From positions 98,208,876-98,272,875 of the forward strand of contig NC_057718.1 of NCBI RefSeq assembly GCF_004010195.1: a DNA stretch of 64,000 nt, in the 5' to 3' direction. Below the pieces are notes generated by a model. The model was not told where the DNA came from. It did no database searches and was given only the letters and a program-made list of their open reading frames with translations. Made by a program: the position numbers and the translations under genes. Positions 2,052-62,503 of this stretch are shown piece after piece (the first letter of the stretch is position 1; every line of letters begins with the position of its first letter). The DNA comes from Chiloscyllium plagiosum (lineage: Eukaryota).

Positions 2052-62503
<60,452 letters not shown>

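Follow-up and report, generated by a model that had tools for sequence, protein, structure and literature searches.

The question posed by this locus is whether 21 nt lying between two PLCB4 exons are used as an exon, how old that exon would be and what it would do to the autoinhibitory X-Y linker of the encoded protein. The window is the whole stretch of DNA that was analysed (64,000 nt). In the window, 18 exons with AG/GT bounds at 2052–62503 encode PLCB4 residues 387–968. With the microexon, the 18-exon chain matches 582 of 582 residues of XP_072437567.1, and without it the chain matches 575 of 575 residues of XP_043552530.1; we take both to be proteins of Chiloscyllium species. The chain is identical to the Hemiscyllium protein at 580 of 582 residues and to the whale shark protein at 576 of 582, which places the window in a carpet shark near Hemiscyllium. 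The chain encodes PLC-beta-4 and not a paralogue, and the named full-length top matches are all PLCB4. The shortest intron within the gene stretch is 92 nt long (2132–2223). The features around the linker are as follows.

5066..5161, + strand: upstream PLCB4 exon of 96 nt, ends in phase 1; the acidic patch that it codes for immediately precedes the insert (tblastn, AG/GT bounds).
5162..5270, + strand: intron of 109 nt before the microexon, with a pyrimidine-rich 3' end, no TGC and the last other AG at 5230–5231.
5271..5291, + strand: cassette microexon of 21 nt, phase 1 to 1, which adds ADLSPNS (residues 504–510 of XP_072437567.1, with Ser507-Pro508).
8281..8384, + strand: downstream PLCB4 exon of 104 nt, which starts in phase 1 (tblastn, AG/GT bounds, spliced contigs).
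11501..11536, + strand: 36-nt exon of the same X-Y linker (12 residues), near-constant in cartilaginous-fish models and often missing in amniote models.
13805..13946, + strand: exon coding the end of the X-Y linker; shark residues of about 570–579 within it align with the PLC-beta-3 segment that contacts the active site.

Microexons are exons of 27 nt or shorter. The 21-nt segment is preceded by AG, followed by G|gtaaga, preserves the frame and contains no stop; an intron of 2,989 nt then leads to the exon at 8281. The coordinates proposed for it by the sequence-only reading (exon end at 5161, 109-nt intron, 5271–5291, next exon at 8281), as well as the phase, the absence of a stop and the peptide ADLSPNS, all hold. 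The same reading called the acceptor strong and the donor near-consensus. The AG and G|gtaaga are present, but when the other 17 exons of the gene are used to make a scoring matrix, the acceptor scores above 7 and the donor above 9 of the 17, which is average for the gene. Across the 64 kb, equally high scores are reached by one in-frame pseudo-exon of 3–27 nt on the + strand and by none on the - strand; lowering the acceptor and donor thresholds by 2 bits each gives eight and six, respectively. Because the sites are average and near-equal pseudo-exons occur in the window, the letters alone are no more than suggestive of a microexon; it is the protein and RNA-contig data that prove it.

The whale shark isoform X1 holds the identical peptide ADLSPNS, and the members of 15 of 15 isoform pairs picked for comparison differ solely by the insert. 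For the RNA data, 4 of the 24 listed runs were placed on 5000–8450; the junction evidence consists of contig pieces and bin depths, the table of joints being filled by repeat-derived joints. Contigs from three runs (X1, X2 and X3) cover the upstream exon at 5066–5161. A contig of run X2 (organism B) joins the upstream and downstream exons with no letters between them, which represents skipping. A 6,228-nt contig of run X3 (organism C) has 21 letters, as judged by length, between the same flanking exons, which represents inclusion, and the depth of its microexon bin is 7.72 compared with 7.71 expected for 21 letters at the depth of the contig. These two runs come from organisms other than that of the window and carry no tissue label; their status as RNA was guessed, though the contigs skip introns exactly and are thus spliced. 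The check on junction reads suggested by the sequence-only reading therefore gave both inclusion (X3) and skipping (X2) in related organisms, but neither in the window's own organism, where coverage is low. There, run X1 contains the upstream exon and one unspliced piece with no inclusion junction, and the raw single-cell run X19, about 2% of which was read, contains no junction reads. The X1 depth of bin 5232–5347 equals 97 unplaced letters of the upstream-exon contig (window 5230–5328). Those letters would fit splicing at the weak AG at 5230–5231, which leads to an in-frame stop at 5234–5236. Together, the isoform matches and the two spliced contigs make it almost certain that PLCB4 5271–5291 is a real, alternatively used cassette microexon of the X-Y linker.

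The microexon is already contained in automatic RefSeq gene annotations of relatives. Isoforms of many sharks, rays and skates and of the chimaera hold the insert, contrary to the earlier suggestion that it might be unannotated. These isoforms (XP_048457048.1 of Rhincodon; XP_041070231.1 and XP_041070307.1 of Carcharodon; XP_042188773.1 of Callorhinchus; XP_072437567.1) contain the same exon, with an identical or near-identical 7-residue insert at 504, and nothing in them is different in kind; all are automatic models. The literature seen, including the available portions of PMC8558292 and PMC11863264, contains no description of this microexon, which may yet be listed in supplementary exon tables or in subscription papers. 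The available text of PMC12195575 mentions three splice variants of mammalian PLC-beta-4, and none is described there as this microexon. The elephant shark is included in bioRxiv 10.64898/2026.09.05.749416, where the main text, as far as available, is without PLCB4 and the exon tables may hold the microexon.

Among 48 cartilaginous-fish PLCB4 proteins, 25 contain the insert and 23 skip it. At the species level, 17 of 21 chondrichthyans, the chimaera included, have the insert, and 9 of 21 have both forms annotated. The four skip-only species are Narcine (6 of 6 models), Pristiophorus (one model), one Mobula assembly (one model) and the species of XP_043552530.1 (one model, as judged from 15 listed of 41 cluster members). 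In all 25 chondrichthyan inserts, from chimaera to skates, positions 2–4 (D-L-S) and 7 (S) are invariant. The flanking linker is likewise well conserved in cartilaginous fishes, so this conservation is not special to the insert. The insert does add a Ser-Pro site, as the sequence-only reading noted, but the site is not invariant: in three skates, Ser replaces Pro at insert position 5 and the pair is Ser-Ser. In Stegostoma, an isoform pair differs by one Ala at residue 923, which resembles a tandem acceptor choice.

Outside the cartilaginous fishes, 17 of 38 proteins of non-teleost ray-finned fishes have a 7-residue insert at this junction; they come from bichirs, sturgeons, paddlefish, gar and bowfin. 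Seven of the 10 non-teleost ray-finned species have it, and five have both forms. In bichirs the junction residue I changes to T...V upon insertion, as a phase 1 to 1 cassette predicts. Eels keep the insert in one teleost paralogue (14 of 15 eel proteins, compared with 0 of 2 in Megalops). Conger has a plus/minus pair with 6 residues, and Anguilla, Synaphobranchus and Gymnothorax are 7 residues longer than Megalops. The inserts of Polypterus, Erpetoichthys, Acipenser, Polyodon, Lepisosteus and Amia (7 residues) and of Conger (6 residues) are at the same junction and phase-compatible, with both forms annotated. Proline occupies insert position 5 in chondrichthyans except skates, in bichirs, sturgeons and gar, and in 2 of 4 eel genera. 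Ser-Pro is missing in the three skates, sturgeons, gar, bowfin, Anguilla and Gymnothorax. Most ray-finned inserts thus share the position-5 proline, but their sequence has diverged from that of the shark insert, and their orthology is judged from proteins only. The Thalassophryne (toadfish) model has a 9-residue insert at the microexon junction.

The insert is present in none of 95 parsed proteins from frogs (0 of 16), coelacanth (0 of 1) and amniotes (0 of 78; 78 of 79 amniote proteins parsed). The earlier expectation that tetrapod proteins are without it is borne out by the frog and amniote proteins (0 of 94); this result refers to annotated proteins, and the retrieved sequences include no lungfish, caecilian, salamander or lamprey. 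For other teleosts, the best 120 of 603 matches include no plus/minus-7 pair, and their linkers are too diverged to call absence. Among the 50%-identity representatives, the 46 top-ranked and 4 further linkers of the 150 listed include no identifiable lamprey and are mostly very divergent, so they provide no outgroup for the age of the microexon.

Orthology of the bony-fish inserts is inferred from the junction, phase, length and shared proline. Since both cartilaginous and ray-finned fishes have an insert at this junction, the narrow lineage restriction once proposed is not supported, and the microexon is probably ancestral to jawed vertebrates. The cartilaginous and bony fishes split more than 420 million years ago. 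The simplest reading is likely a single origin before that split; the lobe-finned line and most teleosts would later have lost the exon. As the microexon has apparently been lost in tetrapods, it is invisible to comparisons based on human or mouse.

Within the protein, the insert (504–510) directly follows the acidic patch. The stretch 464–579 grows from 109 to 116 residues and gains one acidic residue and a second Ser-Pro. In the AlphaFold model of the Heptranchias inclusion form, pLDDT is below 50 over 484–561 and 26 at 501–510; the model is based on a 40-sequence alignment, and its presumed contact segment (571–578) is also below 50. The insert falls in a linker homologous to the autoinhibitory X-Y linker of human PLC-beta-3 (e.g. 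PDB 8emx), in which a contact segment gives most of the inhibition. That segment (575–584) aligns to shark residues 570–579, in a poor overall alignment, and lies about 60 residues after the insert. The insert, with its predicted disorder and pLDDT of 26, does not overlap the active-site-contacting segment (504–510 compared with near 570–579). According to the available text of bioRxiv 10.1101/2023.08.29.555394, deletion of 575–584 from human PLC-beta-3 raises kcat about 350-fold and deletion of the whole X-Y linker raises it about 1,100-fold, so the remainder of the linker is worth about 3-fold; these values are for PLC-beta-3, whose linker aligns poorly with that of PLC-beta-4. The same text discusses a release mechanism in which membrane lipids repel the acidic stretch. 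Because the insert is predicted to be disordered and is about 60 residues before the plug segment, its effect on autoinhibition is likely small.

Inclusion would add seven residues to the portion of the X-Y linker that is predicted to be disordered. It would also place a new Ser-Pro (Ser507) beside the acidic patch; proline-directed phosphorylation of this site is possible and could add negative charge. The extra length and the Ser-Pro may shift the ease with which, at the membrane, the active site is freed of the linker. Any shift in autoinhibition would be few-fold at most, amounting to fine-tuning and not to switching. From this analysis, the chances that the insert has a measurable tuning effect seem evenly balanced; that it acts through the Ser-Pro site is doubtful. 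The natural isoform pair bears on the role of the flexible, non-contact portion of the X-Y linker in setting basal activity or G-alpha-q gain, a question so far probed mostly by deletions in PLC-beta-3.

RBFOX-enhanced exons have enriched, exon-proximal (U)GCAUG motifs downstream. Two groups of candidate motifs are present downstream of the microexon.

5461..5478, + strand: ACTAAT at 5461 and adjoining GCATG at 5474, presumably a QKI-type motif and an RBFOX core, 170–187 nt downstream of the microexon.
6132..6249, + strand: two TGCATG motifs (starts 6132 and 6244), which lie 841 and 953 nt downstream of the microexon and probably do not belong to the element.

The TGCATG motifs are at the positions given by the sequence-only reading, but RBFOX control is not supported by them. 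The downstream intron contains 2 compared with 0.93 expected (P = 0.24), none of them in the first 300 nt and both more than 800 nt away. Within the first 300 nt downstream, ACTAAT (P = 0.14) and the single GCATG (183 nt away, P = 0.23) are each within chance. An assignment to RBFOX-enhanced cassette exons is not supported, as no enriched exon-proximal motif was found. In the upstream intron (5162–5270) there are 0 TGC compared with 1.9 expected, in agreement with the earlier remark that no UGC is evident there. UGC is present in 74–79% of SRRM3/4 microexons and is not strictly needed, according to the available text of bioRxiv 10.1101/2024.09.17.613571. With a motif that is usual but not obligatory, and none here, the SRRM3/4 route is less likely. 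The PLCB4 microexon is similar to the SRRM3/4-dependent neural microexons of vertebrates in size, frame preservation and age, and on this comparison of sequences it differs from them by being without the usual upstream UGC.

Other explanations of the origin are less consistent with these data. A chance pseudo-exon that is never spliced in would agree with the average splice sites and with the several near-equal pseudo-exons at relaxed thresholds, but the identical peptide in RefSeq isoforms of several sharks and the spliced contig with 21 letters at this joint refute it for the relatives and reduce its probability to almost nothing. It was proposed earlier that partial duplication gave rise to the microexon, the source being the start of the following exon. 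Ten of 21 bases match that start (shuffle p = 0.008), and bony-vertebrate skip forms also read A-D at the junction. The proposal is nevertheless improbable and not supported, given that 2 of 16 other exon starts, at 2837 (11/21) and 43048 (10/21), match the microexon as well or better, that a search of the whole following exon gives a best match of p = 0.7 and that the ray-finned inserts are without the D. If cartilaginous and ray-finned fishes had each gained a small exon in this intron on their own, this would explain why the shark, bichir, sturgeon and gar inserts are little alike, and repeated exon birth in the same genes is common according to the available text of bioRxiv 10.64898/2026.09.05.749416. 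The shared junction and phase, the length of 7 residues in five lineages and the shared position-5 proline (post hoc binomial of about 3e-4, with 10% proline and the eels counted as positive on 2 of 4 genera) make such independent gains improbable.

Two explanations concern significance, and both are unlikely without being far-fetched. The insert may be a near-neutral spacer, an in-frame addition to a disordered loop that persists because it is harmless. It is predicted to be disordered, its sequence is free to diverge in ray-finned fishes, it has apparently been lost several times, and the non-contact linker of PLC-beta-3 is worth about 3-fold on the part of the kcat study cited above that is available. 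A spacer of this kind does not readily account for D-L-S and S being unchanged in every chondrichthyan insert, where the flanking linker is conserved too, or for a length fixed at 7 in four ray-finned lineages. Alternatively, the microexon may be neural, with SRRM3/4 or RBFOX activating its inclusion in brain and retina. Its 21-nt size, frame preservation and age would agree with this, as would the enrichment of PLC-beta-4 in neurons (PMC12195575, available text), the dispensability of UGC and the one GCATG 183 nt downstream. The 109-nt upstream intron without TGC and the chance-level TGCATG are contrary to it, and the sole retrieved model has the insert in Heterodontus, Scyliorhinus canicula and Amia, a weak hint of broad inclusion. 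The explanation that best fits the whole, held with moderate confidence, is an ancestral jawed-vertebrate microexon that lengthens the predicted-disordered X-Y linker and likely fine-tunes autoinhibition. The alternative microexon is real, already annotated and probably old, and its expected effect is small.

The 36-nt exon at 11501–11536 is present in 47 of 48 chondrichthyan models and missing in 42 of 76 parsed amniote models (76 of 79 amniote proteins parsed); many amniote models may copy the canonical isoform, so the latter fraction is not an inclusion level. This exon is the orthologue of the 12-residue alternative segment of amniotes, which is likewise an in-frame variation of the autoinhibitory linker. 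It is a different exon from the microexon and lies 35 residues beyond the microexon insert. Bichir, sturgeon, gar and bowfin have a longer version of the 12-residue segment with repetitive sequence. This pattern suggests that the variable piece of the PLCB4 X-Y linker differs between lineages. A hand-over is possible, if tentative: the PLC-beta-4 linker would always have been tuned by splicing, with an ancestral 21-nt microexon, bearing a Ser/Thr-Pro phospho-site, varying in cartilaginous and early ray-finned fishes and lost toward tetrapods, where the 36-nt exon, near-constitutive in sharks, would become the alternative cassette. In chicken and Sceloporus, PLCB4 has inserts of 4 and 13 residues before the 12-residue segment.

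The window contains 549 N in total, with assembly gaps at approximately 39780–40270 and near 35360. A SINE-like element at 6687–7031 has several further copies in the window and very deep run coverage. A perfect 81-nt direct repeat (7697–7777 and 7834–7914) flanks a piece of a short high-copy repeat and is either a local duplication or an assembly artefact.
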